DNA of 64,000 bases from Elusimicrobiota bacterium (GCA_027340875.1 DAIENX010000002.1:1-64000), one strand, 5' to 3'; shown: positions 9,232 to 39,004, numbered from the stretch's first letter. The notes: a model not told the origin generated them from the letters alone. A program made the numbers and translations.

Positions 9232-9273
9232 TGACATAACCATGACAATCATCCGGACGGCAATTTGTATATT
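9232..9273 (+). promoter_or_regulatory. hem operon promoter with TGACA-N6-TGACA direct repeat (OmpR/PhoB-type, HemR-like box) and -10-like TATATT
   Basis: TGACA at 9232 and 9243 (11-bp period); TATATT at 9268-9273, 6 nt before ATG 9280. Confidence 0.65.
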
Positions 9274-9279
9274 TTAACC

Positions 9280-12868: not shown

Positions 12869-12881
12869 GACAGGAGAGACC

Positions 12882-22756: not shown

Positions 22757-24033
22757 GCGCACCGAAGATCTATACCGTCACCGAGCTCAGCCAGGGCATA
22801 AAGTCCCTGCTCGAGAGCAATTTCCGCGAGCTCTGGGTGGAGGGGGAGATCTCCGGACTGAAGGTCTCGTCGCTGGGACATATCTACTTCGACCTGAAGG
22901 ACGCCGGCTCCAACATCTCCGGTGTGCTGTTCCGCGGCTTCGCGCAGGGGCTCAAGTTCGAGCTGGCCAACGGCCTGCTGGTGCGCGTGCGCGGCAATAT
23001 CACCACCTACGATCGCCAGAGCAAGTACCAGCTGATGGCCAAGGCCATAGAGCCCGCCGGCATAGGCCCGCTGCAGCTGGCCTTCGAACAGCTGAAGAAA
23101 AAACTCGCCGCGGAAGGCCTGTTCGATCCTTCCCGCAAGCGGCCGATACCGGCCCTGCCGCAGCAGATAGGCGTGGTCACCTCCCCGACCGGAGCGGCCA
23201 TACGCGACATCCTCTCCGTGCTCAAGCGCCGCTATGCCAACATGCACATAGTGATAGCCCCGGCCAAGGTGCAGGGCGACGGCTCCAAAGAGGAGATAGC
23301 CCAGGCTATAAGGGACCTCAACGACAATTTTCCGGACATGGACGTGATGTTGGTGGGGCGCGGCGGCGGTTCCATGGAGGACCTCTGGGCCTTCAACGAG
23401 GAGATCGTCGCCCGCGCTATAGCCGGCTCGCGGATACCCGTGATCTCCTGCGTCGGCCACGAGACCGATTTCACCATAGCCGACTTCGTCGCGGACCTGC
23501 GCGCGCCGACCCCTTCCGCCGCGGCCGAGGTGGTGGTGAAGAGCAAAGAGGAGCTGGGGTCGCACATAGCGCAGCTCGAAAAACGCCTGCTGCAGAGCCT
23601 GCGCATCTACTACGAGAACCTGCGCGGCAGGTTCCTGCGCCTGGCCGGCAGCCGTATGCTTACCAACCCGCTGACGCTGCTGGAGCGGCCGCTGCAGCGG
23701 CTGGACCAGGCGGTCGAAGGGCTGTTCGACGCGTCCGGCGAGAAGCTGCGCCGCGCCGGGGAGCGGCTCAACCTCAATTCGGAGAAGCTCAAGGCGCTCA
23801 GCCCGCTGTTCCCGCTCAGGAAGGGCTACGCCATAGTGAAGGACGGCAAGGGTAAGGCGGTCAAATCCGCGGCGGCGCTGGCGCCCGGGGACAGGTTGAA
23901 CCTGCAGTTCGCCGAGGGACGCGCCGACGCCGAGGTGCTCAAGGCCTATGGCGGCGCGGCGGAGGAGAATCCGTCGCCGAAGAAGAAGCAGGCGGAGCCG
24001 AAAGGCGGCCCGCAACAGGAGACTTTATGGTGA
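22753..24033 (+). CDS. xseA: Exodeoxyribonuclease VII large subunit
   Basis: WVEGEIS, GHIYFDLKD, TSPTGAAIRD, GRGGGSMEDLWAFN, GHETD, APTPSAAAE. Confidence 0.95.
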   Translation: MSAPKIYTVTELSQGIKSLLESNFRELWVEGEISGLKVSSLGHIYFDLKDAGSNISGVLFRGFAQGLKFELANGLLVRVRGNITTYDRQSKYQLMAKAIEPAGIGPLQLAFEQLKKKLAAEGLFDPSRKRPIPALPQQIGVVTSPTGAAIRDILSVLKRRYANMHIVIAPAKVQGDGSKEEIAQAIRDLNDNFPDMDVMLVGRGGGSMEDLWAFNEEIVARAIAGSRIPVISCVGHETDFTIADFVADLRAPTPSAAAEVVVKSKEELGSHIAQLEKRLLQSLRIYYENLRGRFLRLAGSRMLTNPLTLLERPLQRLDQAVEGLFDASGEKLRRAGERLNLNSEKLKALSPLFPLRKGYAIVKDGKGKAVKSAAALAPGDRLNLQFAEGRADAEVLKAYGGAAEENPSPKKKQAEPKGGPQQETLW

Positions 24034-24280: not shown

Positions 24281-24853
24281 ATGACCGCAGATCGCTTGGA
24301 CCATCTTATAGGCACCGCTGCCGGCTTCGGCGTGGCCGCGTTCTTCATCTACCGACGCTTCCGCAGGAACTTCGGCCGCCAGCGGCTCAAGCGCGGCACC
24401 CTGAAGCTGCGCGTAGCTATCTTCTGCTCGGCGGGCCTGCTGATACTGGCGTCGACCCTGCATTCCATCGCGGCTGCGCTGGCCGCCCTTGCCGGTCTGG
24501 GCGCGGGCCTTGGCATAGCTTTCGCGGCCGCGCGGCATACGCGTTTCGAGGAGCGCGACGGCGAGCTTTATTATGTCCCGCATACCTATGCCGGGTTGGC
24601 CGTCTCCGCCCTGTTCCTGGGGCGCCTGCTCTATCGCCTGGTGTCCGGACTTTCCGCGCCGGCCCCGTCGTCGGCGGTCCTGTACAAAACAAGCGCCTTC
24701 GGTTCCGTCGCCTTCAATCCGGCCACGATGGCCATCTTCTTCATCCTGGTCGGCTATTATGTCTATTTCTACAGTTACCTTCTGCTCCGTTCCGGCCGCC
24801 TGACGGCCGAGGACCTGGAAAGCCGCGCTGCTGCGGGAGGGAAGGGGATATGA
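24281..24853 (+). CDS. Membrane protein, CcdC/DUF1453-like
   Basis: Several TM helices; YRRFRR; TRFE...YYVPH...LFLGRLLYR. Confidence 0.6.
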   Translation: MTADRLDHLIGTAAGFGVAAFFIYRRFRRNFGRQRLKRGTLKLRVAIFCSAGLLILASTLHSIAAALAALAGLGAGLGIAFAAARHTRFEERDGELYYVPHTYAGLAVSALFLGRLLYRLVSGLSAPAPSSAVLYKTSAFGSVAFNPATMAIFFILVGYYVYFYSYLLLRSGRLTAEDLESRAAAGGKGI

Positions 24854-25404
24854 GATACTGGGCTTATATCAATAGCGAGATCAGGGGGCCTTTCGGGAAG
24901 GAGGCGCTGGTCTCCATGAAGGAATTCTCCGGGTCGCTTCTGCTCTGCCCGGAGGGCGGGCAGAGCGGCCAGACGGCCGACTGGAAGCCGGCCTCCTCTT
25001 TCCCGGAAGTGATGTCCGCGAAGCCGGAAGCGCCCGCCGCGGCGCCGCAGGTACCGAAGCCCGCCGCGCCGGGGGCCGAGTCACCACTGGCGCTGACCAT
25101 GCGCGGCTCCCTGATACTGGACCCTGAGATAGAGCAGGCCGCGATAAAGCCCGCGTCCGCTTCCCCTGCCCCCGCCCCCGCGGCCACCGTTGCCGTGAAC
25201 AGGAGCGTATTCGAAGCGCCCGCTAAGAGCGCCGGCGGCGCGGCCCAGCCCGAGCTGCTCGCCGGCAAGCTGGACCAGATAGGCGCCATGCTGCTTTCCG
25301 TTTCCAACGGCCAGACCCAGCTGCTGAGCAGGATGACCAAGCTCGAGACCGAGCTGGCCGCCCTCAAGGCACTCATAGTCCCGCCGCCGCCCAAACAGCC
25401 TTAA
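24850..25404 (+). CDS. Protein with N-terminal GYF_2 (DUF4339)-like domain, Pro/Ala linker and C-terminal coiled coil
   Basis: YWAY...GPF...WKPASSFPE. Confidence 0.6.
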   Translation: MRYWAYINSEIRGPFGKEALVSMKEFSGSLLLCPEGGQSGQTADWKPASSFPEVMSAKPEAPAAAPQVPKPAAPGAESPLALTMRGSLILDPEIEQAAIKPASASPAPAPAATVAVNRSVFEAPAKSAGGAAQPELLAGKLDQIGAMLLSVSNGQTQLLSRMTKLETELAALKALIVPPPPKQP

Positions 25405-25565
25405 TCCCGCCGACTTTTGCCTTCCGGTCTAGCCTTTTCAGTCTATTGCAAGACCGGTCTTTCCATTTTGTAGGATAAGGACAGGGGGATAGCTTCACGG
25501 TCCAGTTCATCGGCCGCGCCGAGGGGCGCGGGGCCGCACTGTCCCCGTCAATCAAAGGGGGGAAA

Positions 25566-26204
25566 ATGAACAAGAACATGAGAGTAACGACGAAGGCCAG
25601 GCACGCCTATACGCAGGCGTACGCCAACTACCTGCGCAGCGGGAACCTGGAGGAGGCCACGCGGCAGGTGGCGCAGGAGATTTACGAGCACAGGGGCAAG
25701 GCCCCCGGCACTCCGGACGGAGACTGGGCGGAAGCCGCTAGGATAACGGCCGAATGGCCGGAGACGATAACGGAGGCCTCGGAGTCGCACCTGTTCGACA
25801 AGGCGCTGGCGAAGACGCGCGCCTGGCTGAAGGACGTGGAAACGGAGCTGGACTACACCAATCCGAACGACGCCTACCGCGCCCTGCGCGCCGTTCTGCA
25901 CGCCATCCGCGACAGGCTGCCGGTGCAGGAGTGCGCCGAGTTCGCCTCGCAGATGCCGGTGTTGATAGCCGGCATGTATTACAGCGGCTGGACCCCGGCC
26001 AACAAGCCGGAGAAGCTGCGCACCGAGACGGAGTTCTTCGGGAAGGTGGGCGCCGCGCTGCCGCCCGGGGCGGACCCGGAGCGCGTTACCAGGGGCGTAA
26101 TAGCCGTCCTGCAGAAGCATATCTCCCCGGGGGAGATGAAGGACGTGAAGAGGAACTTTCCCGAGCGCCTGCGGTACCTCTGGGAGACCGAGGGAACGCA
26201 CTGA
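25566..26204 (+). CDS. DUF2934-like + DUF2267 domain protein
   Basis: AQEIYEHRG...DWAEA; then WLKDV...AYRALRAVLHAIRDRL...SQMP...YYSGW. Confidence 0.7.
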   Translation: MNKNMRVTTKARHAYTQAYANYLRSGNLEEATRQVAQEIYEHRGKAPGTPDGDWAEAARITAEWPETITEASESHLFDKALAKTRAWLKDVETELDYTNPNDAYRALRAVLHAIRDRLPVQECAEFASQMPVLIAGMYYSGWTPANKPEKLRTETEFFGKVGAALPPGADPERVTRGVIAVLQKHISPGEMKDVKRNFPERLRYLWETEGTH

Positions 26205-26249
26205 GCCGGGAGGCGGGGCCGCTCCCGCCGCGGTGAGCGGGGGGAGCGG

Positions 26250-26963
26250 TCAGGCCTTGAGCAGCGGGAGCACGGCCTTCTCCAGGTCGCGCGCGAAGGC
26301 GGTGTTCAGCAGGTCGGCCGGCCTGCCGAGGGCCGTTTCCAACCCGTCGTCGAACCGGATGCCCGGGGAGGAGCCGGCGCGGCCGGAGCGGCCGCGCATG
26401 TTCTCCACCACGCCCAGCAGCGGTACCCCCAGCCTGCGGTAGAGCTCCAGCGAGCGCTCCAATACCGACCTGGCCATAACCGACGGGGTCGTCACCGCCA
26501 GCACCTCGGCCTTGGGCAGCAGCCTTATGGCGTCGAGCGCGGTGTCGTTTATGCCGGGGGGCATGTCCACCACCAGGAAATCAAGGTCGCCCCACAGGGT
26601 GACCGCCAGCATCTCCACCACCGCGCCGGAGATATCGGCGCCGCGCAGCGGCACCGCCCTGCCCGAAGAGAAGAAAGAGACCGACATGAACCTTACGCCG
26701 GACACCTCCGGCGGAAGAAGGCCCATCTCCTCCTCCGGGTAGGCGCCGTCGGCGCCCAGGGCCACGTGGGCTGACGCCCCGCAGAAGTCCAGGTCGGCCA
26801 GACCGGTCCTGTAGCCTTTCTTCGCCAGCAGCAGGGCCAGCGTGGAGGCCGTGACGCTCTTGCCTATGCCGCCTTTCCAGCCGGTGACGGCGATGACGCG
26901 CTTCACCCTGGCCAGCCTGTCTCCTATGACCGAGGGCCTCGGGTCTATCCTCGTCGGGGTCAT
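26250..26963 (-). CDS. hypB: Mrp/MinD-family ATPase; probable ATPase-type HypB nickel-insertion protein
   Basis: IDPR N-terminus; deviant Walker A KGGIGKS; DLDFCGAS; PLRG; WGDLDFLVVDMPPG; VVENM; overlaps the hypA stop; start placed at MTPTRIDPR. Confidence 0.75.
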   Translation of the reverse strand: MTPTRIDPRPSVIGDRLARVKRVIAVTGWKGGIGKSVTASTLALLLAKKGYRTGLADLDFCGASAHVALGADGAYPEEEMGLLPPEVSGVRFMSVSFFSSGRAVPLRGADISGAVVEMLAVTLWGDLDFLVVDMPPGINDTALDAIRLLPKAEVLAVTTPSVMARSVLERSLELYRRLGVPLLGVVENMRGRSGRAGSSPGIRFDDGLETALGRPADLLNTAFARDLEKAVLPLLKA

Positions 26964-27361
26964 TTTTCCCCCTTGAGGTATTTGATGTAGACGCCGCGGC
27001 CCGACTTCACCTCGAAGTCGGGGCTCGCGCAGGCGGGGCAGGCCAGGAAGGCGTGAGCGAGCTCCGGTATGAAATGGATGTTCTCGCCTTCCTCGTCGGT
27101 CTTCTTCAGGTGCTCCAGCGTGAAGTCCTTGCCGCAGGCGCGGCACCCGAAGGCGGCGGCTTCCTCTATGAGCTTGAAGCTGCAGGCGGGCGGCGGCGTG
27201 TCCTTGAGCAGCTCGCGCAGCGCCGTGGAGAAGATGTCCCTGTCTATGGCCTGCAGTTCGCCCAGCACCACGCCTATCTCCGAGAGTCTGCGGATCTTCT
27301 CCGAGGCCGCGTGCTTGTTAGCGGATTTTACCACCGATTCGGCTAGAGCCCATTCGTGCAT
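26960..27361 (-). CDS. hypA: Hydrogenase nickel metallochaperone HypA
   Basis: MHE Ni-binding N-terminus; GEL; two CxxC motifs; IHFIPELAHAFLACPAC insert. Confidence 0.92.
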   Translation of the reverse strand: MHEWALAESVVKSANKHAASEKIRRLSEIGVVLGELQAIDRDIFSTALRELLKDTPPPACSFKLIEEAAAFGCRACGKDFTLEHLKKTDEEGENIHFIPELAHAFLACPACASPDFEVKSGRGVYIKYLKGEK

Positions 27362-27362
27362 A

Positions 27363-28541
27363 TCAGCGTCCTATGTCCGTGGGCGCGCGGCCCAGGGAGT
27401 TCAGCAGCTTCACAACGGCCTGGATGCGGGAAGGCACGTCGTCCTCCACGCCGGCCCGGCCGGGGTAGATCTCGTACTGCCTGCGGTACTTCACCGGGGT
27501 CACGTTGATCATCAGGGAGTTCGCGCCGGCCATCAGCCCTTCCCTGGCGCCGTTGTCCTTGTCGAGCGTCTCGAGCGCGGTGGTGACCAGGATGTTGGCC
27601 TCCGGGTTCATCAGCCGGGCTCGTGCTATGGTGTCCAGCATGGAGCCCAGCGGCGGCAACTTCTCCGCGGAAAGCGGCGTCTCGGGGTGCGGGATGAACG
27701 GGCCGAAAGAGAACATCTCCGCGCCCAGCTCGGCGGTGAGCCGGATGTTCCTGAAGGTGTCGCGGTTGGAGCCGCCCGGCAGGCCGGCGAGGAAGCCCGT
27801 GATGATCATGTAGCCGAGTTCCCGGACGCCGCGTATCAGTTCCAGCCGCGCGTCCAGAGAAGCGCCGGGCTTCATGCGGCCGAACAGGTCCGGGTTCGAG
27901 GTCTCGAAGCGCATAAGTACGCCGCGGGCGCCGGCCTTGTAGAGCGCGGCGTAGGTGGAAAGCGGGCGCGGGCCGATGCTGACTATCAGCAGCACCGGGC
28001 AGCGCTTAAGGATGCCCGAGACTATGCGGGCGAGCTTCGCCTCGTCGTACCAGGGGTCCTCGCCGGACTGGAGCACCAGGGCCTTGAACCCCAGCTCCTT
28101 CACGGCGTATTCCACCGCGTCGAGGATCTCGTCCTCGGTCATGCGGTAGCGGCCGACGGCGGAGTTGTCGCGGCGCAGGCCGCAGTAGAGGCAGTTGGCC
28201 GCGCAATGGCTGGAGAACTCGAGGATGCCGTGCACGCAGCAGGAGTTGCCGAGCTTCTTCTGCCGTACGGCGTTGGCGCGCTCGTGGAGCGTGCGCGGCG
28301 CGGCGGCCAGCTTCCTGTCGGTGTCGCGCAGGCGGAAGAAGAGCCGGCGCCACTCGGCCATGATCTCCATGGCCTCGTCCTCCGGCACGGTCTGGATCAC
28401 GAAACCGCCCTGCGCGTAGACGTAGTCGCCTACCGAGACGCTGGCCAGGCCCGTGTGCGCCTTCTTGGTCTCGTCGAAGTACTCTATGGTGGCGGCGAAG
28501 CCTTCTAGCTTTACCACCTTGCCGGGTATGGCGTAGCACAT
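27363..28541 (-). CDS. Fusion: N-terminal HypC/HupF domain + HydE-like radical SAM domain
   Basis: MCYAIPGKVV...VGDYVYAQGGF...EDEA (HypC); GILEFSSHCAANCLYCGLRRDN..RYRM, LQSGED, RFET, GPFIPHPETPL, GANSLM..YEIY (HydE-like). Confidence 0.85.
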   Translation of the reverse strand: MCYAIPGKVVKLEGFAATIEYFDETKKAHTGLASVSVGDYVYAQGGFVIQTVPEDEAMEIMAEWRRLFFRLRDTDRKLAAAPRTLHERANAVRQKKLGNSCCVHGILEFSSHCAANCLYCGLRRDNSAVGRYRMTEDEILDAVEYAVKELGFKALVLQSGEDPWYDEAKLARIVSGILKRCPVLLIVSIGPRPLSTYAALYKAGARGVLMRFETSNPDLFGRMKPGASLDARLELIRGVRELGYMIITGFLAGLPGGSNRDTFRNIRLTAELGAEMFSFGPFIPHPETPLSAEKLPPLGSMLDTIARARLMNPEANILVTTALETLDKDNGAREGLMAGANSLMINVTPVKYRRQYEIYPGRAGVEDDVPSRIQAVVKLLNSLGRAPTDIGR

Positions 28542-28550
28542 GGCGAGCTC

Positions 28551-29927
28551 CTAGAAGTAGAGGTCCCTGCGGCCCCTGGCTATCTGGGCGAGGCGCCTGC
28601 CGGCCTCTTCCCTCAGGGCCAGGTTCTCGATGCCGCCTACGCATCTGCGGATGAGCTCCCTGCCCTTCCGGCGCAGCCCGGCGTCGCCGAAGTCGCTCAG
28701 GTACTCGGCGAAGGTCAGGGCGGCGTTCAGGTCGCAGAACTTGTGGATGTGGCCGGGCTTGGAGAGCTCCATGAATCGCTCTCCGGTGCGGCCGCTGCGG
28801 TAGCAGGCCGTGCAGAAGCTGGGTATCAGGTCGCTCTCGGCCGCGGCGCGCACCACCTCGCGCAGCGGGCGGGCGTCGTGGATGTCGAACTGAGGCTGCC
28901 TGGCGCCGCTGCAGTAGCCGCCGGTCACCGGCACGGAGCCGGCGGAAGCCTGCGAGACGCCGATGTCGAAGGCCCTGCGGCGGATCTCGGGACTTTCCCG
29001 GGTGGACAGGATGATGCCGGCGTAGGGCATGGCCAGCCGGAGTATGGCTATCAGCTTCAGGAAGTCGGCGTCGCTGACGGGATGGGCCGGCTTGTAGCTG
29101 ACCGAGGGGGCCTCGCGCAGCCTTGGCACGGAGATGGTGTGGGGGCCGACGTTGTGCACTGCCTCCAGGTTCCTCGCGTGCGCGGCCAGGCCCAGCAGCT
29201 CGAAGCGCCAGTCGTAGAGCCCGAACAGGACCCCCAGGCCGACGTCGTCTATGCCGCCCTCGAAGGCTCGGCCCGGAGCCCCGAGCTGCCGCTCATAGTC
29301 CGCTTTGGGGCCGGTGTGCAGGCTCTCGTAGGTGGGGCGGTGATAGGTCTCCTGGAAAAGCTGGTAGGTGCCGATGCCGGCCTCCTTGAGCTTTCTGTAG
29401 TTCTCTGGTGTGGTGGCGGCGATGTTGACGTTGACCCTGCGGATGTTGCCCTTCGGGACCTTCACCGAGTAGATCCTCTTTATCACGCTTACGATGTAGT
29501 CTATCGTGTTGCGGGACGGGTCCTCGCCGGCCTCGAGCAGGATGCGTTTGTGGCCCTGGCCTATCAGGAACCTGGTCTCCCTCTCCACCTCGGCCAGCGT
29601 CAGCTTGCGCCTGCTCATGCTCCTATTGGCGGAGCGGAAGTTGCAGTAGCAGCACTCGTTGACGCAGTGGTCGGAGACGTAGAGCGGCGCGAACAGGACC
29701 AGCCTGCGCCCGTATATCTCGCGCTTTACTTCGGAGGCGGCGCGGAACAGCCGCTCGGTCAGCGCGGTATCGGTGACGTGCACCAGCCTGGCGACGTCGG
29801 CCAGGGCGAGGCCTTTCTTCTTCCGCGCCTTCTCTATTATCGCGGCGATCTCGCCGTTCGACGGGTTCTTGGCCCTGTCGAGCATGTCCTGCAGGAAGCC
29901 GGTCCTCAGCGATAGCGGCACGGTCAT
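28551..29927 (-). CDS. hydG: HydG-type tyrosine-lyase radical SAM protein ([FeFe]-hydrogenase maturase family)
   Basis: FAPLYVSDHCVNECCYC; IRRVNVN; YQLFQETYH; GPHTISVPR; C-terminal CX2CX22C (CTAC...KFC). Confidence 0.88.
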   Translation of the reverse strand: MTVPLSLRTGFLQDMLDRAKNPSNGEIAAIIEKARKKKGLALADVARLVHVTDTALTERLFRAASEVKREIYGRRLVLFAPLYVSDHCVNECCYCNFRSANRSMSRRKLTLAEVERETRFLIGQGHKRILLEAGEDPSRNTIDYIVSVIKRIYSVKVPKGNIRRVNVNIAATTPENYRKLKEAGIGTYQLFQETYHRPTYESLHTGPKADYERQLGAPGRAFEGGIDDVGLGVLFGLYDWRFELLGLAAHARNLEAVHNVGPHTISVPRLREAPSVSYKPAHPVSDADFLKLIAILRLAMPYAGIILSTRESPEIRRRAFDIGVSQASAGSVPVTGGYCSGARQPQFDIHDARPLREVVRAAAESDLIPSFCTACYRSGRTGERFMELSKPGHIHKFCDLNAALTFAEYLSDFGDAGLRRKGRELIRRCVGGIENLALREEAGRRLAQIARGRRDLYF

Positions 29928-29984
29928 AGGTTCCTCCGATCCATAGTTGTCTGCCTGTGCCCGGCCGTGGCCGGGAAAAATAGT

Positions 29985-30473
29985 TCAACGGGGCCCGAAT
30001 TCCAGCAGGCAGCCCAGTATCAGCCGCGCGGAGCTCTCTACTTCCCGCGACAGGCCGGCGCCGTAGGCGGTGTTCTTGGGCTGTATGCCCAGAAACACGG
30101 TGCGGGCGCTGGTGTCCTCGCCTATTATCCCGGCGACTACGCTCAGCGGTATGGAATGGGTGGAGAGGGTGCCTTCTCCGATGTGTTCCGGAGCTATGAC
30201 GCGCACCTCGCCCGGGCTGCCGCCGAAATCCGCCGCGTCGATGAATATCACCTTCGCCGGCTTCAGCCCGGCGGCCTTGTCGACCACGCTCTCCGGCCTA
30301 TCGAAGGCGTTGATGAGTCTGAAGCCCAGCTCCCGGCCCAGCAGGCGGCCGCCGATGAACGGCCCCACCCCGTCGTCGCCCCTGAACGGGTTGCCGACCG
30401 TTATCACGAGGGTGTCGCCGCCCTCGCAGGGGGCCAGCGCCTGCCTGGCTTCAGCGGTTAACGTAGGTGACAT
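29985..30473 (-). CDS. Hydrogenase maturation endopeptidase (HycI/HybD family)
   Basis: VGNPFRGDDGVG, FIDAADFG..PG, STH, LGIQP. Confidence 0.9.
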   Translation of the reverse strand: MSPTLTAEARQALAPCEGGDTLVITVGNPFRGDDGVGPFIGGRLLGRELGFRLINAFDRPESVVDKAAGLKPAKVIFIDAADFGGSPGEVRVIAPEHIGEGTLSTHSIPLSVVAGIIGEDTSARTVFLGIQPKNTAYGAGLSREVESSARLILGCLLEFGPR

Positions 30474-31779
30474 TGAGCATATGCGTCGAGCAGGAGATGC
30501 AGGGGTCGTAGGCCCTTACCAGCATCTCGAGCGCGAGCGTTATCTCCTCTTCGGTCTTGTGCAGTATCTCCGGCAGCAGTTTCTTCATGTCGTGCTGGAT
30601 ATTGTTGATGTTCTGGTTCGTCGGGATGATGCAGTTGGCGTTGACTATGGCGCCCTTGGCGTCCGTCTGGTAGTTGTGGAACAGCGTCCCGCGCGGCACC
30701 TCCACGGCGCCCACGCCGTCCCCGGCGCGGAGCGGGACCTTGCCCTGTTCGTTCACCCCGACCAGCACCTGCTCGTCGTAGTTGATCCCGCGCTTGCGCA
30801 GGTCGTTCAGGATGGCGATCGCGTCCTCCAGGCAGTGCACGCACTCCACCAGCTGGGCGGCGGTGTTGAGGTAGGGGTTGCGGCAGACGGGTTTCAGGCC
30901 TATCCGCTCGGCCACGGCCTTGGCGTCCGGGTGCAGCTTGGCGGAGTTGAGATTGAAGCGGGCCAGCGCGCCTACCGCGTAGGACTCGCGGCTGAGCTTC
31001 GTGAACTTGGCGGAGGAGCGCGGGTCCACGAACTCGTTGGTGACCTTCCTGTACTCCTTCTTGCTCATCCGCACGCCGTCCGTGGAGCCGATGTCCCCCT
31101 CCAGGAACGGGTACTCGGGGCCGTCGTTGACCATGGCCACGTACTCGGTGTCGCGCTCGAACTCCGGGAACTTGAAGCCGGCGGCCAGGTCCACGGTCAC
31201 GGCCATGTCCGCGCGCATGCCGCGCAGGATGTTCAGCATGCGGTCTATGTCGTGCTCGGAGGGCAGCTTGGTGAAGCCTCCGGCGACGCAGGAGATCGGG
31301 TGCACATGGCGGCCGACCAGGATCTCGCAGAGGTCGTTGCAGTCCTTCTTCATGCGCAGTGCCCGCCTGACCACCTTGTTGTGCGTGGCCACCAGCGGCA
31401 CGAAGCTCTTGACCCCCAGCATGTCCGGGGCTACCAGCAGGTAGATGTGCAGGATATGGCTGTCCAGCGTCTCGAAGTGCATCAGCAGCTTGCGCAGCTT
31501 CAGGGTCTGGTCGGTGGGGGCTATCCCGAGGGCGTCCTCGGCGGCCTGTATGGAGGCCAGCGAATGGCCGCACGAGCAGATGCCGCAGATGCGGCTGGTG
31601 ATGTGCTGCGCCTCGAACACCGAGCGGCCGCGCAGCATGCCCTCGAAGAAGCGCGGGGCCTCGACGACGTTGAACTCGCATTTCTCTATGCGGCCCTCCC
31701 TGACGTTGACCACGATGTTGCCGTGGCCCTCGACGCGGGTGACGTATTCGCTCTTGATGTCTACGTTCTTGTTAGCCAT
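30451..31779 (-). CDS. Group 3b [NiFe]-hydrogenase large (alpha) subunit
   Basis: TRVEGHG; PRFFEG; L1 SRICGIC; EVPRG; L2 RAYDPCISCSTH plus short cleavable tail; start placed at MANKNV. Confidence 0.93.
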   Translation of the reverse strand: MANKNVDIKSEYVTRVEGHGNIVVNVREGRIEKCEFNVVEAPRFFEGMLRGRSVFEAQHITSRICGICSCGHSLASIQAAEDALGIAPTDQTLKLRKLLMHFETLDSHILHIYLLVAPDMLGVKSFVPLVATHNKVVRRALRMKKDCNDLCEILVGRHVHPISCVAGGFTKLPSEHDIDRMLNILRGMRADMAVTVDLAAGFKFPEFERDTEYVAMVNDGPEYPFLEGDIGSTDGVRMSKKEYRKVTNEFVDPRSSAKFTKLSRESYAVGALARFNLNSAKLHPDAKAVAERIGLKPVCRNPYLNTAAQLVECVHCLEDAIAILNDLRKRGINYDEQVLVGVNEQGKVPLRAGDGVGAVEVPRGTLFHNYQTDAKGAIVNANCIIPTNQNINNIQHDMKKLLPEILHKTEEEITLALEMLVRAYDPCISCSTHMLNVTYVNR

Positions 31780-32522
31780 TATTTCTTTCCTTCCCTGCAC
31801 TTGTTGTACATGTCCATCTTCGCGGCTATCATCGCGGGGGTCACGTTGTACTTGGCCATCACGTCCTTGGCGGCGTTCTCGCGCGGGTTGCTGATCATGC
31901 CGCGGCAGCCGTAGCAGACGTTGTTGTTGTTGACGCACCAGGAATTGCAGCCCGCCCTGGTGACCGGGCCCATGCAGGTCACGCCGCGCTCGTACATGCA
32001 GACGTTCTCGTTGAACTTGCACTCCACGCAGACCGGGTGGTCCGGCACGGTATAGGGCATCCCCTTCAGGATGTGCTTGAGGACCTCCACCAGCTCGGGG
32101 ATGTAGGCCGGGCAGTTGTTGATGGTGTAGTCCACCTTGACCACCTGGTGCAGCGGCCTGGTCTTGGCGGTGGGGAAGCTCTTGTGGTCGGCGCCGTAGA
32201 CGTACTTGCCTATCTCCTCCAGGTCGAACGAGTTCTTCATCCCGTTCACGCCGCCGGTGGCGGCGCAGGCGCCGAAGGCCACCAGGACCTTGGCCCTCTC
32301 CCGGATCTTCTTGAGCCGTTCCGCGGAGTGGTCGTCGGTGACGCTGCCCTCCACGAACGCTACGTCGTACTTCCATTCCCACTTCTCGGACATGACCTCG
32401 CGGAACTCCACTACGTCCACCAGCTCGAGCACGTCGAGCAGGGTCTCGCCCATGTTGGCGAGCTGCAATTGGCAGCCCTCGCAGCAGGACAGATCGAAGA
32501 AAGCGACTTTAGGTTTTGACAT
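31779..32522 (-). CDS. Group 3b [NiFe]-hydrogenase small (delta) subunit
   Basis: SCCEGCQ, VEGSV, GACAATGG, NCP, VCVECK, CMGPVTRAGC, CYGCRG. Confidence 0.92.
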   Translation of the reverse strand: MSKPKVAFFDLSCCEGCQLQLANMGETLLDVLELVDVVEFREVMSEKWEWKYDVAFVEGSVTDDHSAERLKKIRERAKVLVAFGACAATGGVNGMKNSFDLEEIGKYVYGADHKSFPTAKTRPLHQVVKVDYTINNCPAYIPELVEVLKHILKGMPYTVPDHPVCVECKFNENVCMYERGVTCMGPVTRAGCNSWCVNNNNVCYGCRGMISNPRENAAKDVMAKYNVTPAMIAAKMDMYNKCREGKK

Positions 32523-32536
32523 GGCGGTCCTCCGGG

Positions 32537-33379
32537 TCACATCTTGGCTACGTTCTTTATCCTGTCGTAGCTGAACACCGGCCCGTCCTGGCAGCAGTAG
32601 TAGTTGTCGATGCTGTCGATCTGGCAGTGCCCGCACTTCCCCATGCCGCATTTCATGTGCCGCTCCAGGGAGAGGATGATGTTGCGCTCGGCTATCTTCT
32701 TCTTCAGCAGCTCGGAGATCACGAACTTGTACATGACAGGGGGGCCTACCACCACGGCGAAGGTCCTCTCCGGGTTGATCGTGACGCCCGGGATGATGGA
32801 GGTTATCAGGCCGATGTTGCCGGCCCAGTCCGGGCTGCCCTTGTCCACGGTCACGTTGAAGTTGACGTCCACCCGCTTCTGCCAGAACTCCAGGTCGTCG
32901 GCGAAGAGCATCTCGCTGGGGTTGCGGCAGCCCAGCAGGATGTCCACCTTGCCGAACTCGCGCCGGTTGTCGATCACGTAGTTTATCAGCGAGCGCAGCG
33001 GCGCTATGCCGAGGCCGCCCGCCACGAAGATCAGGTCGTTGCCGGCCAGCACCTTGACCGGGAAGCCCTTGCCGAACGGGCCGCGGATGCCGATCTCGTC
33101 GCCGGCCTCGAGGGCGTGCATAGCGTTGGTGACCCGGCCGGCCGCGCGCACGCAGAGCTCGAAGGAGCCGCGCTTGGTGGGGGAGGAGCAGAGCGAGATA
33201 GGGGCCTCGCCCACGCCGAAGACCGAGACCTGGACGAACTGGCCTGGCTCGTAGTCCATCGCGCGGCCGTTGTCCAGCTCTATCTCGAAGAGCTTCTCCG
33301 AGGGGGTCATCCGCTTGACGCGGATGATGCGGCCTTTCCTGACGCGCCAGTTAGAGTTGACGAGCTCTTCCTTTATCAT
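32537..33379 (-). CDS. Sulfhydrogenase gamma subunit (FAD/NAD(P)-binding, [2Fe-2S])
   Basis: PGQFVQV..GVGEAPIS, RGPFGKGF, AGGLGIAPLRS, GPPVM, ERHMKCGMGKCGHC, CQDGPVF. Confidence 0.92.
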   Translation of the reverse strand: MIKEELVNSNWRVRKGRIIRVKRMTPSEKLFEIELDNGRAMDYEPGQFVQVSVFGVGEAPISLCSSPTKRGSFELCVRAAGRVTNAMHALEAGDEIGIRGPFGKGFPVKVLAGNDLIFVAGGLGIAPLRSLINYVIDNRREFGKVDILLGCRNPSEMLFADDLEFWQKRVDVNFNVTVDKGSPDWAGNIGLITSIIPGVTINPERTFAVVVGPPVMYKFVISELLKKKIAERNIILSLERHMKCGMGKCGHCQIDSIDNYYCCQDGPVFSYDRIKNVAKM

Positions 33380-34422
33380 GCGGCCTCCTTTACCAGTGCT
33401 GTAAGCGTTTCCTTGAGCCGGATGCCCGCCATGCAGGTCCGGGTGCACCTGCCGCAGCCGGTGCAGAAGAAGCGGTAGTACTTGCCGAGCGAGAAGCGGA
33501 ACTTGCGGTAATGGCGGTGCCGCAGGCGCTCGGCCTGGCCGCTGCGGAAATTCTCGCCGCCGGCCACCTTGGCGAAGGTCTCGACCTCGCAGGAATCCCA
33601 GGTCCGGACGCGCTTGCCGCTCTTCAGGTCCAGGTTCAGCGTGTCGGCTATGTCGAAGCAGTAGCAGGTGGGGCAGACGTTGGTGCAGTTGCCGCAGCCC
33701 AGGCATTTGTCCCCGATGGCCTTCCAGACCGGGCTGTTCTCGCTCTTGTCGAAGATGGCCGGGAGCTTCTTGCGGTCGACGTTCACCTCGTCCTTGAAGC
33801 GGGAGCGCTTGGCGTCCCTGATGGCGTAGAGCGCCTCCATCTGGGCCTGCGTGGCGGGCTTGAACAGGTTGCTGCTGTCCACCAGGTCGTCGCCGGCCTG
33901 GGTGTTCACGTGCGCCATGAAGACCTCTCCCATGTCGGTGAAGAACAGGTCGTAGCCGCCGTTGGGGAAGTTCGAGTTCATCAGGTTGCAGCTGGCGTGC
34001 TCGTCGCAGTACTCGGTGCACTCCAGGCCGATGACGGTTATGTTGTCCTTGCGGCGCAGGTAGTTGTAGTCGCGCGGTCTTTCGGAGAAGACGATGTTCA
34101 GGCACTGGATGCCGTTCAGGTCGCAGGTGTGGACTCCGAAGATGACGGTGTTCTCGTGCTCGAGCAGGGCCTCGGCGTTCTCCACGTGGCCGGTGCTGAA
34201 GCTCAGCATCGTCTCCTTCTGCGGCAGGAAGTACTTCTTGGGGGGCAGTATCGTGGGTATGTGCTTGAGGGCTATGTCGTTAGCGGAGGTGACCTCCGTG
34301 AAGGCGTAGTTGCCGTAGCCCTTGCTGACCGGCGCCACCACCTTGTGATTGCGCGAGAGCTTCACGATGAAGCTGTTAAGGTCGTCTTTTCTGAGGATGA
34401 AGTACCGCGTGTGCGTTCCCAT
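33376..34422 (-). CDS. Sulfhydrogenase beta subunit (4Fe-4S dicluster, AsrA-like)
   Basis: PPKKYFLP, FGVHTCD, CLGCGNCTNVCPTCYC, WDSC, CTGCGRCTRTC; GGAGG RBS before MGTHT. Confidence 0.9.
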   Translation of the reverse strand: MGTHTRYFILRKDDLNSFIVKLSRNHKVVAPVSKGYGNYAFTEVTSANDIALKHIPTILPPKKYFLPQKETMLSFSTGHVENAEALLEHENTVIFGVHTCDLNGIQCLNIVFSERPRDYNYLRRKDNITVIGLECTEYCDEHASCNLMNSNFPNGGYDLFFTDMGEVFMAHVNTQAGDDLVDSSNLFKPATQAQMEALYAIRDAKRSRFKDEVNVDRKKLPAIFDKSENSPVWKAIGDKCLGCGNCTNVCPTCYCFDIADTLNLDLKSGKRVRTWDSCEVETFAKVAGGENFRSGQAERLRHRHYRKFRFSLGKYYRFFCTGCGRCTRTCMAGIRLKETLTALVKEAA

Positions 34423-34483
34423 AAGATGCCTCCGTGGCCGGGGCCCCGGCCTGGGACTTTCCGTCGGAAAATCCTCTATATTT

Positions 34484-34512
34484 ATTGTGCAACATGGGGG
34501 GGCCGCTGTAAA
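34484..34512 (-). promoter_or_regulatory. Putative sigma70 promoter of the hydrogenase operon
   Basis: Minus strand TTTACA-17 nt-CACAAT in an AT-richer patch about 60 nt upstream of the beta subunit start. Confidence 0.35.
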
Positions 34513-34715
34513 CAAGAACGGTCAACAGCGGGATTGAATTTAGTCAGGTCCCGGGGGGGAGTATGGTCAAGCCGCGCCCTGCCTTCGCCTGGCGCGCTGA
34601 CGGCAAGGATATCCGCTTTCGGTCCCCCCGGTCCGGTCCCCAGATAACTGGATTTGTACGATATTTGGCCTGCCCGGGCAAGTAGCCTGTCGCGGTTATT
34701 CTATAATAGTCAGGT

Positions 34716-35447
34716 ATGAAGAAGCGCTTGGACGTCGCGTGCGTGGAACTGGGGCTTTTCGAAAGCCGCGAGAAGGCCCTGCGCGCCATAATGGCGGGGC
34801 TGGTCATCGTCAACGGGAAGCCGGCCGACAAGGCCGGCATGCCGGTGCGGGACGGGGACGTGCTGGACCTGGCCGCCCCCGGCTGCCCTTACGTCTCCCG
34901 CGGGGGGCTGAAGCTGAAAGGGGCATTGGAGGCCTTCGGGCTGGAGCCCGCGGGCAAGATCTGCCTGGACGTCGGCGTGGCTACCGGCGGTTTCACCGAC
35001 TGCTTCCTGCAGGCCGGCGCTTCCAGGGTCTACGCCGTGGACGTAGGCGAGGGCCAGATCCACGAGAAGATAAAAGCCGACCCGCGCGTGGTCTTCATGC
35101 CGCGCACGAACGCGCGCTTCCTCAAGCCGGAGCTTTTCCCGGAGAGGCCGGAACTGTGCGCGATAGACGTCTCTTTCATCTCGCTGAAGCTTATCCTCGG
35201 GCCAGTTCTGTCGGTGATTGCTCCCGGAGGGAAGGTAATAGCCCTGGTCAAGCCGCAGTTCGAACTGCAGCCTTCTGACCTGCGCAAAGGCATCGTAAAG
35301 GACGAGGAGACAAGACTGGGCGTGATGGTCTCCATGAGGGCTTTCCTTGCGGGATCCCTGCCCGGCGCGCAAGAACTGGGCCTGAGGGATTCTCCTATAA
35401 AGGGCGCGAAGGGGAACCTCGAGTTCCTCTGGCTGCTGGGTGTTTAA
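34716..35447 (+). CDS. tlyA: TlyA-family rRNA methyltransferase
   Basis: S4 domain (RLDV..SREKA); YVSRGGLKL; TGGFTD; DVSFISL; LVKPQFE; SPIKG..GN.EF. Confidence 0.93.
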   Translation: MKKRLDVACVELGLFESREKALRAIMAGLVIVNGKPADKAGMPVRDGDVLDLAAPGCPYVSRGGLKLKGALEAFGLEPAGKICLDVGVATGGFTDCFLQAGASRVYAVDVGEGQIHEKIKADPRVVFMPRTNARFLKPELFPERPELCAIDVSFISLKLILGPVLSVIAPGGKVIALVKPQFELQPSDLRKGIVKDEETRLGVMVSMRAFLAGSLPGAQELGLRDSPIKGAKGNLEFLWLLGV

Positions 35448-35464
35448 TAGCTTCCCCCCGGAGG

Positions 35465-35503
35465 AAAAAAGAAAGGGCCCCTTCCGGGGCCCTTTCTTTT
35501 TTT
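35465..35503. terminator. Bidirectional Rho-independent terminator
   Basis: AAAAAAGAAAGGGCCCC-ttcc-GGGGCCCTTTCTTTTTT between convergent genes. Confidence 0.85.
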
Positions 35504-35515
35504 AGGCTGTACGGC

Positions 35516-36253
35516 TTAGTAGCACTGACCCTGGTAGGTATAGATCTTCTCGGTCTCGACGGACTTGCCGGTGTAGCTGCCGAGCGTCTGATCGCCCTGC
35601 ACGAACCCGGCGGCCAGGTCGCGCGTGGTGGTCTGGAAGTGGAAGGTCACGTTCTGGTGGCCCCACTGGGTGACCCACTGGGTGTAGCAGTTGGGGACGT
35701 GCGGAGGCTGGCCCTGGAAGTCGGGGGTGTGCACCGCGACCGGGTTGGGCACGGAAGGAGCCTGGCGGCTGCCGATCTCGTCCTGGCCGAGGCCGGCTTC
35801 CAGCGTCTTGGAGGCGGCGGTCTCATTGGACTTAAGGGCGCGGCAGATGGTCTCCGGGCGCTGGTAGGTGCAGGACTCCCAGCCGGACTGGTCGGCGGAG
35901 TTAGTGACGACGGTCTTCATCGTGCCCTTCAGGCCGAAGTTCTGGCCGATCTGGGCGGGGGTGAGGTCGAAGGTCTCGCCGATGTTGATGTTCTTGTCGA
36001 AGCTGATCTTGACCTTGGTGGGCTGGTCGGCGTTCTTGATCTCCAGCGTTATTTCCTTGTTGTTGCCGGACTTGCCGATGACGGCCTTGGTCTGGAACTG
36101 GCCGGGATTGATGGTCACGATCGCGCGGTTCTGGTTGGCGAAGGTCACAGGCGAAGTCAGGTCCAGCATACCGCCGAAGTTGATCTCGTTGCAGCCGACC
36201 AGGACGGCCATCATGGCGGCGATCCCGAGGCTGGATATTATCTTCTTGTTCAT
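35516..36253 (-). CDS. Hypothetical lipoprotein
   Basis: Signal peptide with lipobox LVGC; GGAGAG RBS; beta-rich with four later Cys. Confidence 0.75.
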   Translation of the reverse strand: MNKKIISSLGIAAMMAVLVGCNEINFGGMLDLTSPVTFANQNRAIVTINPGQFQTKAVIGKSGNNKEITLEIKNADQPTKVKISFDKNINIGETFDLTPAQIGQNFGLKGTMKTVVTNSADQSGWESCTYQRPETICRALKSNETAASKTLEAGLGQDEIGSRQAPSVPNPVAVHTPDFQGQPPHVPNCYTQWVTQWGHQNVTFHFQTTTRDLAAGFVQGDQTLGSYTGKSVETEKIYTYQGQCY

Positions 36254-36496
36254 CTTTTAACTCTCCTCATTGCTTACCGTATTCTGCTTCCCCTTAACCC
36301 GATCATCGATCACTGGGGTACCTTCCATTAGACAAAATAGCGCGGACCCTGCATAGCGTCATAGGACCTATGCGCAAGTAGGTAAATGGTCCTATGCCGG
36401 GATAGGACCTTCGGGCAAAGGTTCCCGGCGGCCGGCAACTATCCGAGCGCGGAGAAATAATAGTATCATGAGGCTCTAGGGCAGACCTTCATTAAT

Positions 36497-37663
36497 ATGG
36501 CGACGAAAAGACAAGGCCCCGCATGCGTGGTCTGGGAGCTGACGCTGGCCTGCAACCTCAAATGCCTGCATTGCGGCTCCACCGCGGGAGGGCGCCGCGA
36601 GGCCGAGCTTTCCACGGCCGAGGCGCTCGAGCTCTGTTCCGGCCTTAAGGAGGCCGGCTGCGGCGGCGTGGCCCTTATGGGCGGCGAGCCGCTGTTGAGG
36701 AAGGATTTCCCGGCCATCGCATCCAGGGTGAGGGAGCTGGGCATGGAGCTCTCCGTCATCACCAACGGCACGGTGCGGCCTGACGGGATATTTACCCTGC
36801 TGAAGAGCCTGGGCCCCAGGGCCGTGGCCATAAGCCTGGACGCGGCCGGCCCGGAGCTGCACGACCGGATACGCGGGGTCCCGGGCGCGTTCGCCAAGGC
36901 CTCTTCGTTCATCGAAGACGCGCTGAAAGCCGGCCTGCCGGTCAGCGTTATCACCACGGTGCATAAACTCAACATCTCCGAGCTTCCCGGGCTGCGCGAT
37001 ATAATAAAAGGAAGGGGGATAGCCTGGCAGGTGCAGACCGCCGGCGCGGAAGGCGGCCGTTTCTCGCGCGACCTGCTGCTGGACCAGGAGGAGTTCTATT
37101 CCGTCGGGATGTTCGTGGAATCCTGCCGCCGCGAATATTCCCCGGAGGAGCTCCCGGTCATAGGCGCCCATGACCTCGGCTACCATTCCCTGCTGCTGAA
37201 GAACGTCTCGCTCTACGAGAAATGGGAGGGCTGTCAGGCCGGCGTCTCGGTGGCCGGCATACGCAGCGACGGCGGCGTGCTCGGTTGCCTGGCGGTCAAC
37301 GACGACCGCTTCGTGGAAGGCAGCGTGCGCAGGGAGCCGTTCCAGGCCATCTGGAGCCGGCCCGGCGCGTTCTCCTACGCGAGGGATTTTTCGCCCGGGA
37401 AGCTGGGGGAGAACTGTGCCGGCTGCGGTCACGCCGAGACCTGCCGCGGCGGCTGCAGCGAGATGTCGCTGATGAAGACGGGCCGTCCGCACAACGATCC
37501 CTATTGCTTCCGCGCCATAGAGGACAGGCTGTTCTTCAAAGGTCCCGGAGGGGCCGTCAGGAAGCTCGGCGCCTCTATCGCCGCCGGCCGCGGACGTGCG
37601 CCGTTCGGCCGGCTCGGCCGGATATTCTCGGGGAAAAGGGGGGAGGCCGGTGGAGACAGATAA
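36497..37663 (+). CDS. Radical SAM protein with SPASM domain
   Basis: VWELTLACNLKCLHC; GGEP; SPASM CQAG...GVLGC...CAGCGHAETCRGGC...DPYC. Confidence 0.9.
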   Translation: MATKRQGPACVVWELTLACNLKCLHCGSTAGGRREAELSTAEALELCSGLKEAGCGGVALMGGEPLLRKDFPAIASRVRELGMELSVITNGTVRPDGIFTLLKSLGPRAVAISLDAAGPELHDRIRGVPGAFAKASSFIEDALKAGLPVSVITTVHKLNISELPGLRDIIKGRGIAWQVQTAGAEGGRFSRDLLLDQEEFYSVGMFVESCRREYSPEELPVIGAHDLGYHSLLLKNVSLYEKWEGCQAGVSVAGIRSDGGVLGCLAVNDDRFVEGSVRREPFQAIWSRPGAFSYARDFSPGKLGENCAGCGHAETCRGGCSEMSLMKTGRPHNDPYCFRAIEDRLFFKGPGGAVRKLGASIAAGRGRAPFGRLGRIFSGKRGEAGGDR

Positions 37664-38630: not shown

Positions 38631-38695
38631 GGCGGTTCCCCGCTGGAGAGAAAATTAATAGAATTCTGTCGTATCCTGGAGGTGGAGAGGTGAAT

Positions 38696-39004
38696 ATGAA
38701 GAAACTTTTAGAGCTGGGCGCGAAGACGGGCCTGACCAAGGCCGAAGTGAACCGTGTGGCGAGGTTCGGGCTGCTGGGCCTGCTGGCCGTGGGCCTGGCC
38801 GGCATAGCGGGCTGCTTCAGGGCTCAGAAAGCGGAGGCGCCGCAGAGCGCCGATAAACCGGGCACTCTGCAGGATATAGTCAGCTCGGTGAACAAGAGCA
38901 CCGGCGCCGCGCAGGGCCAGGACAACTGCGGTCCTTACCCGGGCTACCCCTGCGGCACCCGGTATTACACGGTGAGCGTTTCGGATTTCCGGCGGTCAGC
39001 CTGA
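38696..39004 (+). CDS. Small putative lipoprotein with Cys/Tyr/Pro-rich C-terminal motif
   Basis: Strong RBS; hydrophobic segment ending IAGC; C-terminal CGPYPGYPCGTRYY. Confidence 0.65.
   Translation: MKKLLELGAKTGLTKAEVNRVARFGLLGLLAVGLAGIAGCFRAQKAEAPQSADKPGTLQDIVSSVNKSTGAAQGQDNCGPYPGYPCGTRYYTVSVSDFRRSA

Follow-up and report, generated by a model that had tools for sequence, protein, structure and literature searches.

Nine closely packed genes lie on the minus strand between positions 26250 and 34422 of a 64,000-nucleotide stretch of DNA from an Elusimicrobiota bacterium (the whole of it hereafter called the window, to which positions refer unless another contig is named), which is contig C14 of the genome assembly G000 (2.81 Mb in 112 contigs, 92.45% complete and 5.49% contaminated). 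The genes encode a [NiFe] hydrogenase and a set of maturation proteins in the order beta, gamma, delta and alpha subunits, protease, HydG, a fusion of HypC to a HydE-like radical S-adenosylmethionine (SAM) domain, HypA and an Mrp-type HypB (Table 1), and neighbouring genes either overlap by 1-23 nucleotides or are spaced by 1-57 nucleotides. They were identified from a listing of open reading frames (ORFs) and from Pfam and NCBIfam family scans, with start codons read from the ORF translations, and this analysis bears out the nine-gene operon as it had been positioned in a preliminary description of the same DNA. That description also proposed that HydG and the fusion, maturases of the [FeFe] type, stand in for the missing HypD, HypE and HypF in the maturation of the [NiFe] enzyme, and it is this proposal that we evaluate here.

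Table 1. Genes of the hydrogenase operon, extent of the cassette that contains it, and flanking genes, with positions in the window.
Feature	Positions	Strand	Family match or evidence
Hydrogenase beta subunit (Fe-S, ShyB/HydB-like)	33376-34422	-	Fer4_22 103.9 bits
Hydrogenase gamma subunit (FAD/NAD(P)-binding, 2Fe-2S)	32537-33379	-	NAD_binding_1, FAD_binding_6, DHODB_Fe-S_bind
Hydrogenase delta (small) subunit	31779-32522	-	Oxidored_q6 91.3 bits
[NiFe] large subunit alpha, group-3b type, C-terminal extension	30451-31779	-	PF00374 NiFeSe_Hases 120.1 bits
HycI-type maturation endopeptidase	29985-30473	-	PF01750 40.6 bits; TIGR00072 97.4 bits (cut-off 47.45)
HydG	28551-29927	-	TIGR03955 513.5 bits (cut-off 312.15)
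HypC::HydE-like fusion	27363-28541	-	PF01455 (residues 1-63), PF04055 Radical_SAM, BATS
HypA (Thermococcales-type nickel chaperone)	26960-27361	-	PF01155 76.2 bits; NF003008 145.8 bits (cut-off 125)
Mrp/MinD-type ATPase, HypB equivalent	26250-26963	-	PF10609 160.9 bits
Cassette, as delimited by synteny with relatives	26014-34714	.	8.7 kb, between housekeeping genes
xseA flanking gene	22753-24033		flank of the cassette
DUF2267 flanking gene	25566-26204		flank of the cassette
tlyA-like FtsJ/S4 flanking gene	34716-35447		flank of the cassette

The alpha subunit carries the motifs RICGICSCGH and DPCISCSTH plus a 9-residue tail. The hydrogenase is assigned to group 3b (sulfhydrogenase-type) because the best NCBIfam matches of the alpha, beta and delta subunits are all Shy or Hyd models (ShyA 237 and HydA 231 bits for alpha, ShyB 235 and HydB 231 bits for beta, HydD 169 and ShyD 162 bits for delta), every one of these scores lying below the Pyrococcus-based equivalog cut-offs; the gamma subunit scores highest with NF006220 (cytochrome-c3 hydrogenase subunit gamma; 290.8 bits, cut-off 395), and the Hyd and Shy models rank just below. 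At the other end of the operon, the hypA and hypB genes overlap by 4 nucleotides. HypA matches HypA of Thermococcus kodakarensis (3a43) at 116 bits, and the best solved match of the ATPase is 3vx3 from the same organism (204.9 bits), a chain that has been co-crystallised with HypA in entries (5aun, 5auo, 5aup) that match both window proteins, so that the earlier identification of the ATPase as an Mrp-type HypB stands. Comparison with G001, a second assembly with the same layout, indicates purifying selection on all nine genes, with dN/dS between 0.07 and 0.18 (beta 0.089, gamma 0.112, delta 0.129, alpha 0.071, protease 0.069, HydG 0.131, fusion 0.098, HypA 0.183, Mrp-type HypB 0.077).

Are the genes that are missing from the window encoded elsewhere in the genome? 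Profile searches of the whole G000 assembly gave no match to HypD and none to the [FeFe] hydrogenase (Fe_hyd_lg_C); the best HypE match reached 22.9 bits (cut-off 251.6), the only HypF match was one of 38 bits to profile positions 2-83, and HydF returned nothing beyond generic GTPases, at 54.6 bits or less (cut-off 325.6); the hits to these three profiles are unrelated paralogues. The same searches recovered these families in control genomes expected to carry them. The absence of hypD, hypE, hypF, hydF and an [FeFe] hydrogenase, first noted in the window, therefore extends to the entire 2.81 Mb assembly, and the case named at the time as able to refute the proposal, that these genes lie elsewhere in the genome, is not what the genome-wide search found. 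HypC (as a domain), HypA, HydG and the HydE-like gene each occur once in the assembly, alongside two intact [NiFe] large subunits in which all four cysteine motifs are present and which each have a protease of their own. The second hydrogenase is of the Hdr-Mvh type (group 3c) and is encoded at positions 2830-10183 of contig C101 (locus L016) by a cluster, 97% identical in G001, that comprises HdrB/C-like genes, HdrA, MvhD, the small and large subunits and a HycI-type protease, with no further maturation gene nearby; the HydG-fusion module would have to serve this enzyme as well. The idea that the Hdr-Mvh hydrogenase is the ancestral one is unsupported, as relatives give only 33% matches to it, and these are to their 3b enzyme. 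A third large-subunit candidate, a weak PF00374 match on contig C84, is NuoD-like and lacks the cysteine motifs.

For comparison, 80 loci encoding the fusion, with their genomes, were kept from 88 confirmed matches in a genome collection, the first 50 having been picked for longer loci; the fusion architecture is also present in all 120 of the best protein clusters listed. The window HydG scores above its family cut-off (Table 1) and matches the solved HydG 4wcx at 502.9 bits over residues 14-458. It contains the CX3CX2C motif at residue 88 and, at residue 372, the C-terminal CX2CX22C motif of the auxiliary cluster, which separates HydG from ThiH and is the site where the iron complex is assembled. 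Judged by these features, the window HydG is a bona fide, ordinary member of its family. In the HydGs of the 80 fusion loci, CX3CX2C is present in 42 of 42 proteins, and of the 38 that extend to the C-terminus 34 have CX2CX22C; the HydGs of L062, L068, L072 and L087, which adjoin long-type fusions, reach the C-terminus without the exact CX2CX22C spacing.

The fusion protein consists of a HypC domain (residues ~1-63) and a HydE-like radical SAM domain (residues ~84-387), which are joined by a long helix (residues 54-78). AlphaFold predicts a single body (pLDDT 93.4, pTM 0.91), the fold of which matches that of Thermotoga maritima HydE (TmHydE) with a TM-score of 0.82-0.88 in Foldseek, and the sequence matches TmHydE at 220 bits (~37% identity) and T. 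kodakarensis HypC at 32 bits. The HypC half scores 50.8 bits with PF01455 (cut-off 28.5) and 42.5 bits with TIGR00074 (cut-off 48). It begins MCYAIPG, and Cys2, which corresponds to the iron-binding Cys in the N-terminal Met-Cys-x-x-x-Pro of HypC, is present in 73 of 73 complete fusions. However, the canonical HypC His of the V-H-x-G-F/Y-A strand, which is found in all six HypCs from HypD-bearing genomes, is replaced by Gln (Gln44) in 52 of 52 fusions. The radical SAM half scores 224.7 bits with the HydE model TIGR03956, below its cut-off of 254.6.

Is the radical SAM half a HydE? We compared 73 fusions with 16-17 canonical HydEs, using TmHydE numbering mapped by hand from the alignment. The SAM-cluster cysteines (C113, C117 and C120, in 73 of 73 fusions) are kept in both groups, as are E58, L157, R/K159, E161, T162, M224, T268, T269 and M291. 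In contrast, the residue equivalent to R54, which is Arg in 16 of 16 canonical HydEs, is His in all 73 fusions; T134 (Thr in 16/17) is mostly Phe, Ile or Val, with Thr in 4/73; R155 (Arg in 17/17) is Gly, Ala or Ser, with an Arg at position 154 in 71/73; and K309 (Lys in 16/17) is Arg in 70/73. The window fusion has H104, I186, R206-G207 and R362 at these sites. In the available part of a study of HydE (PMC11826987), R54, T134 and R155 surround the cyanides of the dimerising HydE product, K309 is proposed as a proton relay, and M224, M291, T268/T269, E58 and E161 are tied to catalysis and to iron intermediates. The G000 fusion has no cysteine in the C-terminal stretch that aligns with the auxiliary-cluster site of TmHydE.

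The distribution of HydE genes draws the same distinction. A single branch (SH-aLRT 100, quick tree) parts the 73 fusion domains from 16 canonical HydEs, and across 50 fusion genomes the fusion-type genes score 207-280 bits with the HydE model and the stand-alone HydEs 293-386 bits. A stand-alone HydE, usually beside HydF and HydG, is found in 14 of the 18 fusion genomes that bear an [FeFe] hydrogenase and in none of the 32 that do not, and HydF is likewise found in 14 of the former and none of the latter. With one exception, the 14 genomes with a second HydE carry one HydG only, which suggests that a single HydG feeds both maturation branches where the fusion and a canonical HydE coexist. We note that G018 and G047 contain [FeFe] hydrogenase matches of ~320 bits but that neither a canonical HydE nor HydF was found in them, the fusion and a single HydG being all that was found of this machinery; either these are incomplete bins or the fusion is able to serve both hydrogenase classes. 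On sequence grounds, then, the radical SAM half is a diverged paralogue of HydE and not HydE itself. The protein falls outside the HydE family, and also outside the free-standing HypCs, since its HypC domain is fused and G000 has no HypD. The preliminary description holds for the fused architecture, with the qualification that the second half is not HydE proper.

We propose, with a probability that we put at roughly 70%, that the operon works as a self-sufficient cassette for a [NiFe] hydrogenase, with HydG and the HypC::HydE-like fusion carrying out the iron-ligand branch that normally falls to HypC, HypD, HypE and HypF. The proposal is based on gene content, domain architecture, catalytic motifs, purifying selection, the replacement of hypCDEF within the lineage and a complementary distribution across genomes; we infer from these every chemical step, the tyrosine origin of the ligands and the activity of the enzymes. 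HydG and SAM would first cleave tyrosine, and an iron-carbonyl-cyanide-cysteine complex would be built on the C-terminal cluster, as for [FeFe] hydrogenases. The radical SAM half of the fusion would then take the HydG complex and remove its cysteine, and the remodelled pocket may keep the product mononuclear rather than paired for HydF. Next, the iron fragment would be passed on, without leaving the polypeptide, to Cys2 of the HypC half, and this half would dock on the unprocessed large subunit and insert the fragment. Last, HypA and the Mrp-type HypB would insert nickel, and the HycI-type protease would cut off the C-terminal tail. Every computational test that the preliminary description named as able to refute this hybrid pathway was run; none refuted it, and its interpretation is supported.

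How did such an operon come to lie in this genome? HypD is present in 11 of 11 other members of the family of G000, and mis-binning of the contig was therefore tested first. Among relatives, G172 belongs to the same genus and G104 and G164 to the same family; HypF scores above its cut-off in four of four relatives tested, and the fusion was found in none of five. Relative to the syntenic backbone of these genomes, the operon lies within an inserted cassette (Table 1). In G104, window position 26013 is joined to 34715 with ~300 bp between, so that the DUF2267 gene is directly followed by tlyA, and in G172 position 24260 is joined to 34717 with 17 bp between. The flanks are 76-79% identical to G172 at the DNA level with their order conserved (XseA 81% and TlyA 76% identical as proteins). 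G001 is collinear with positions 25524-41404 of the window at 88.7% identity and also lacks HypD and HypF, and the junctions at positions 24260 and 34715 are spanned by short contigs from four DNA runs belonging to a single study. No direct or inverted repeats stood out at the cassette borders, where no search for an integrase or tRNA was made. Two plus-strand ORFs between xseAB and the DUF2267 gene (positions 24281-25404; 190 and 184 residues, no Pfam match) are absent at this place from G172 and G104 and mark a second, small insertion adjoining the cassette. A radical SAM/SPASM gene just downstream, at positions 36497-37663, is unrelated to the hydrogenase operon.

The loci that relatives retain and that have been emptied in G000 can also be traced. 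G164 and G104 share the arrangement pilin, prepilin peptidase, hypC-hypD-(regulator)-hypE and membrane protein, with hypF next in G104; hypE was identified here from its position and sequence. On contig C72 of G000, the gap between the prepilin peptidase and membrane protein genes is ~0.7 kb, compared with 4.4-5.4 kb in the relatives, and hypCDE are gone. The site is contiguous: it is an emptied syntenic locus and not an assembly gap. Beside it, at positions 6093-6858 of C72, lie NikR-like and nickel/cobalt transporter-like ORFs, as judged by eye from their sequences. At another locus, G172, G104 and G164 encode beta-gamma-delta-alpha-protease, a 490-residue permease-like gene, hypA and an Mrp-type hypB. 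The corresponding site in G000 is represented by the overlapping ends of contigs C106 and C58, where 4.8 kb of hydrogenase genes are reduced to 142 nucleotides and hypA and hypB are gone. Mis-binning is excluded by the synteny of the flanks, the collinear G001, the junction-bridging contigs and the emptied hyp locus.

The components of the cassette differ in their affinities. The alpha subunit, HypA and HypB are 68-74%, 60-61% and 67% identical to those of the 3b locus in relatives (60% for HypA and 67.6% for HypB against the G172 orthologues), and in a quick maximum-likelihood tree the large subunit of G000 and G001 is sister to those of G104, G172 and G164 (SH-aLRT 99), placed outside the group of these three despite the shared genus of G000 and G172. 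The HydE-like domain of the fusion, on the other hand, groups with fusions from Planctomycetota and Lentisphaerota, and HydG is 47% identical to the HydG of G172 and 64-67% identical to fusion-adjoining HydGs of other phyla. Because the alpha subunit, HypA and HypB are of the family's type but HydG and the fusion are nearer to those of other phyla, the cassette is read as a putative mosaic, in which a family-type hydrogenase and nickel branch are combined with a foreign HydG-fusion pair in place of the permease-like gene. Acquisition of the whole cassette from Planctomycetota was considered and rejected, as the structural genes, hypA and hypB are the family's own type and only HydG and the fusion look foreign. 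A related lineage is the probable donor of the cassette; in the order of events that we infer, the native operon and hypCDEF were lost afterwards.

We asked whether the fusion and HypD replace each other throughout the phylum, in a sample of 201 of its genomes that we regard as unbiased. Among the 81 with a large-subunit match (E <= 1e-8), HypD without the fusion is found in 68, the fusion without HypD in 11, both in none and neither in two. The fusions of this sample span eight families, and in three of these (f1, f15 and f21) HypD is held by 11 of 11, 10 of 11 and 8 of 9 other members. On contig C73 of G088 (positions 8799-9801) the HypD frame is broken by stops (1 TGA; 1 TAG and 3 TAA). In G064, of the same genus, the fusion is present and HypD absent, and the hypD gene of G088 may have been caught in the middle of decay.

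Across phyla, HypD is found in 3 of the 80 fusion genomes (0/50 in the first set and 3/30 in the second), HypF in three and HypE in two, and 76 have none of the three. A [NiFe] large-subunit match is present in 50 of 50 fusion genomes tested and HydG scores above its cut-off in 48, whereas 32 of the 50 have no [FeFe] hydrogenase and 36 no HydF (these are found in 18 and 14, respectively). In the closed 1.28 Mb chromosome G048, the fusion and HydG accompany a large subunit of group 4 in which both cysteine motifs are present, and HypD, HypE, HypF, HydF and the [FeFe] hydrogenase were all searched for and not found. In 24 loci the fusion belongs to a 3b operon (alpha identity at least 45%); other contexts are a group-4 operon with hypA and the fusion following in that order, the arrangement hypA-hydG-fusion, and bare hydG-fusion pairs. 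Counts of HypA, HypB and non-3b hydrogenases in the 80 loci are lower bounds, as tblastn with the window proteins is too insensitive for them. Where there was room on both sides of the fusion (52 loci), HydG is adjacent in 28, elsewhere in the fetched stretch in 6 and outside it in 18. In one locus from a Planctomycetia bin (L050, positions 11250-14781), the fusion lies directly upstream of a gene of the prismane/CO-dehydrogenase family and of the beta subunit of ACS/CODH, with no hydrogenase in the 21 kb fetched. The linkage of the fusion with [NiFe] hydrogenases and the exclusion of HypD are therefore conserved across phyla as well as within the phylum sample. Two of the earlier expectations need to be narrowed: hypDEF is excluded in the 76 genomes but not in four that hold one or more of its genes, and the tie of HydG and the fusion to group 3b, real in the 3b operons, gives way elsewhere to a group-4 operon or, often, to the two genes alone.

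What else could explain these data? The fusion and HydG could do the same job by another mechanism, in which HydG does no more than provide CO and cyanide, free or as a labile complex, and the fusion is mainly a scaffold of the HypC-HypD kind: the iron would sit between Cys2 and the radical SAM domain, the ligands would be attached there, and the radical chemistry would have some other role or be vestigial. The pairing of a HypC domain with a [4Fe-4S] protein, as in HypC-HypD, and the rigidity of the predicted model fit this explanation; the four changed pocket residues could mean that the HydE reaction has been lost and not modified; and, in the available text of a study of clostridial acetogens (PMC9431212), release of free CO and CN by a clostridial HydG is stated to have been demonstrated. 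We nonetheless consider it unlikely: the fusions keep their SAM-cluster cysteines in 73 of 73 cases together with M224, M291, T268/T269, E58 and E161, dN/dS is 0.098 across the whole fusion gene, and the HydG neighbours that reach the C-terminus mostly keep CX2CX22C, the motif of complex assembly. Alternatively, HydG and the fusion might make another iron-carbonyl cofactor, or serve an unrecognised hydrogenase-like enzyme, the [NiFe] hydrogenases being matured by unknown proteins or inactive. The absence of HydG from the fetched stretch in 18 of 52 loci, the several loci without a hydrogenase nearby, the fusion beside CODH/ACS genes and the HydG-fusion pairs in some DPANN-labelled bins would all suit such a function. 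To our knowledge, however, the only clients of HypC, the domain that is fused here, are [NiFe] large subunits, and a large subunit accompanies the fusion in every one of the 50 genomes tested; the fusion lies inside 3b and group-4 operons next to hypA, it is complementary to HypD among hydrogenase-bearing genomes, and purifying selection acts equally on the structural genes and the maturase genes. This second explanation strikes us as quite improbable.

That the result is an artefact, with hypCDEF present but missed in incomplete bins or contig C14 mis-binned, is an explanation to which we attach very little probability. It draws on the incompleteness (92.45%) and contamination (5.49%) of G000 and on the quality of the comparison genomes, of which 79 out of 80 are draft bins. 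Set against this are the flanks of the cassette, which are syntenic with a genome of the same genus at 76-79% DNA identity; the contiguous and emptied sites of hypCDE and of the old 3b operon; the second assembly G001, with the same layout and the same absences; and the closed chromosome, with the same gene set. Moreover, HypD counts of 0/50 and 3/30 are not explicable by 8-10% of missing sequence in each genome.

Several observations nevertheless weigh against the cassette that we propose. Chemically, HydG is known to yield a product with two CO and one CN, as the titles of solved structures also state, and the iron of [NiFe] hydrogenases carries one CO and two CN; the exchange from Fe(CO)2(CN) to Fe(CO)(CN)2 is unaccounted for by the proposed pathway. 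Both halves of the fusion fall below a family cut-off, the radical SAM half that of HydE (TIGR03956) and the HypC half that of TIGR00074. No canonical HydE is seen in 4 of the 18 [FeFe]-bearing fusion genomes (G013, G018, G043 and G047), and HydF is missing from three of these as well, so that in some organisms the fusion could double as an ordinary HydE. HydG was not found in two of the 50 fusion genomes (G027 and G043) and lies outside the fetched stretch in the 18 loci mentioned above. The exclusion of the Hyp proteins is not absolute, as G275 and G279 hold the fusion together with HypD, HypE and HypF, G271 with HypD and G255 with HypF; the GC contents of the fusion and HypD contigs in the three genomes with both (0.39/0.38, 0.41/0.45 and 0.55/0.58) do not show mixed bins and cannot separate these from real coexistence. 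Conversely, G053 and G062 contain a hydrogenase but neither HypD nor the fusion; G062 is 78% complete with a lone HypC at a contig end, and the 3b operon of G053 is cut by a contig end right after alpha. Finally, all of the genomes but one chromosome are metagenome bins, G000 itself being 92% complete and 5.5% contaminated.

Taken beyond G000, we think it likely, with somewhat less assurance than for the operon itself, that in many uncultured anaerobes tyrosine, acted on by HydG and the fusion, is the source of the Fe(CN)2(CO) group of [NiFe] hydrogenases, and that this radical SAM route is a full functional alternative to HypCDEF which moves as a two-gene module and has repeatedly displaced hypCDEF. 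The lineages named for this route are Omnitrophota, Planctomycetota, probably Elusimicrobiota, WOR-3, Firestonebacteria, Spirochaetota and others. In the full-text literature searched, which leaves subscription journals largely outside, we found no description of HydG or of a HypC-HydE fusion acting on [NiFe] hydrogenases. As far as we know, HypCDEF is treated as the universal machinery for making Fe(CN)2(CO) in these enzymes, and the anoxic source of their CO ligand is a long-standing open question. If our proposal is true, it would provide a second, chemically defined answer to that question, and the maturation of [NiFe] and [FeFe] hydrogenases would share a chemical core that branches at HydE versus the HydE-like domain of the fusion (HypC::HydE'). 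Genomes without hyp genes might still make active [NiFe] enzymes, which would alter how metagenomes are read, and annotations of 'HydE/HydG' would be no proof of [FeFe] hydrogenases. Furthermore, the nine genes would form a compact cassette with which an NAD(P)-linked [NiFe] hydrogenase could be produced in a heterologous host. G000 is a good entry point for such studies, since the hydrogenase and nickel genes have orthologues in its HypCDEF-using relatives, so that the two sets of maturation genes could be exchanged on one and the same enzyme.

How does the proposed system compare with those already known? HmdB/HcgA is a radical SAM protein of the BioB/HydE/PylB group that is tied to the iron-carbonyl cofactor of [Fe] hydrogenase; the fusion differs from it in domain architecture and scores 58.6 bits with TIGR03957, far under the cut-off of 320.9. 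With the canonical Hyp pathway the window shares the target, a large subunit that has two CxxC motifs and ends in a cleavable tail, as well as HypA, a HypB-type NTPase, a HycI-type protease and a HypC module with its N-terminal Cys; the nickel branch and the protease are ordinary, the nickel branch being of the Thermococcus form. Unlike that pathway, it has neither the HypD scaffold nor cyanide synthesis by HypE and HypF, and its HypC is fused to a radical SAM enzyme and has Gln in place of His. Clostridial acetogens are a different case, since all of those studied carry HypCDEF according to the available text of PMC9431212. The HydE/HydF/HydG maturation of [FeFe] hydrogenases, exemplified by T. 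maritima HydE and T. italicus HydG, differs in turn from the system described here: G000 has no HydF and no [FeFe] hydrogenase, the radical SAM domain of the fusion forms a separate clade with changes at R54, T134, R155 and K309, and fusion genomes with an [FeFe] hydrogenase mostly (14/18) carry a canonical HydE as well. What the two have in common is a HydG that passes its family cut-off with both cluster motifs, and a HydE fold in which most residues of the catalytic pocket are retained.

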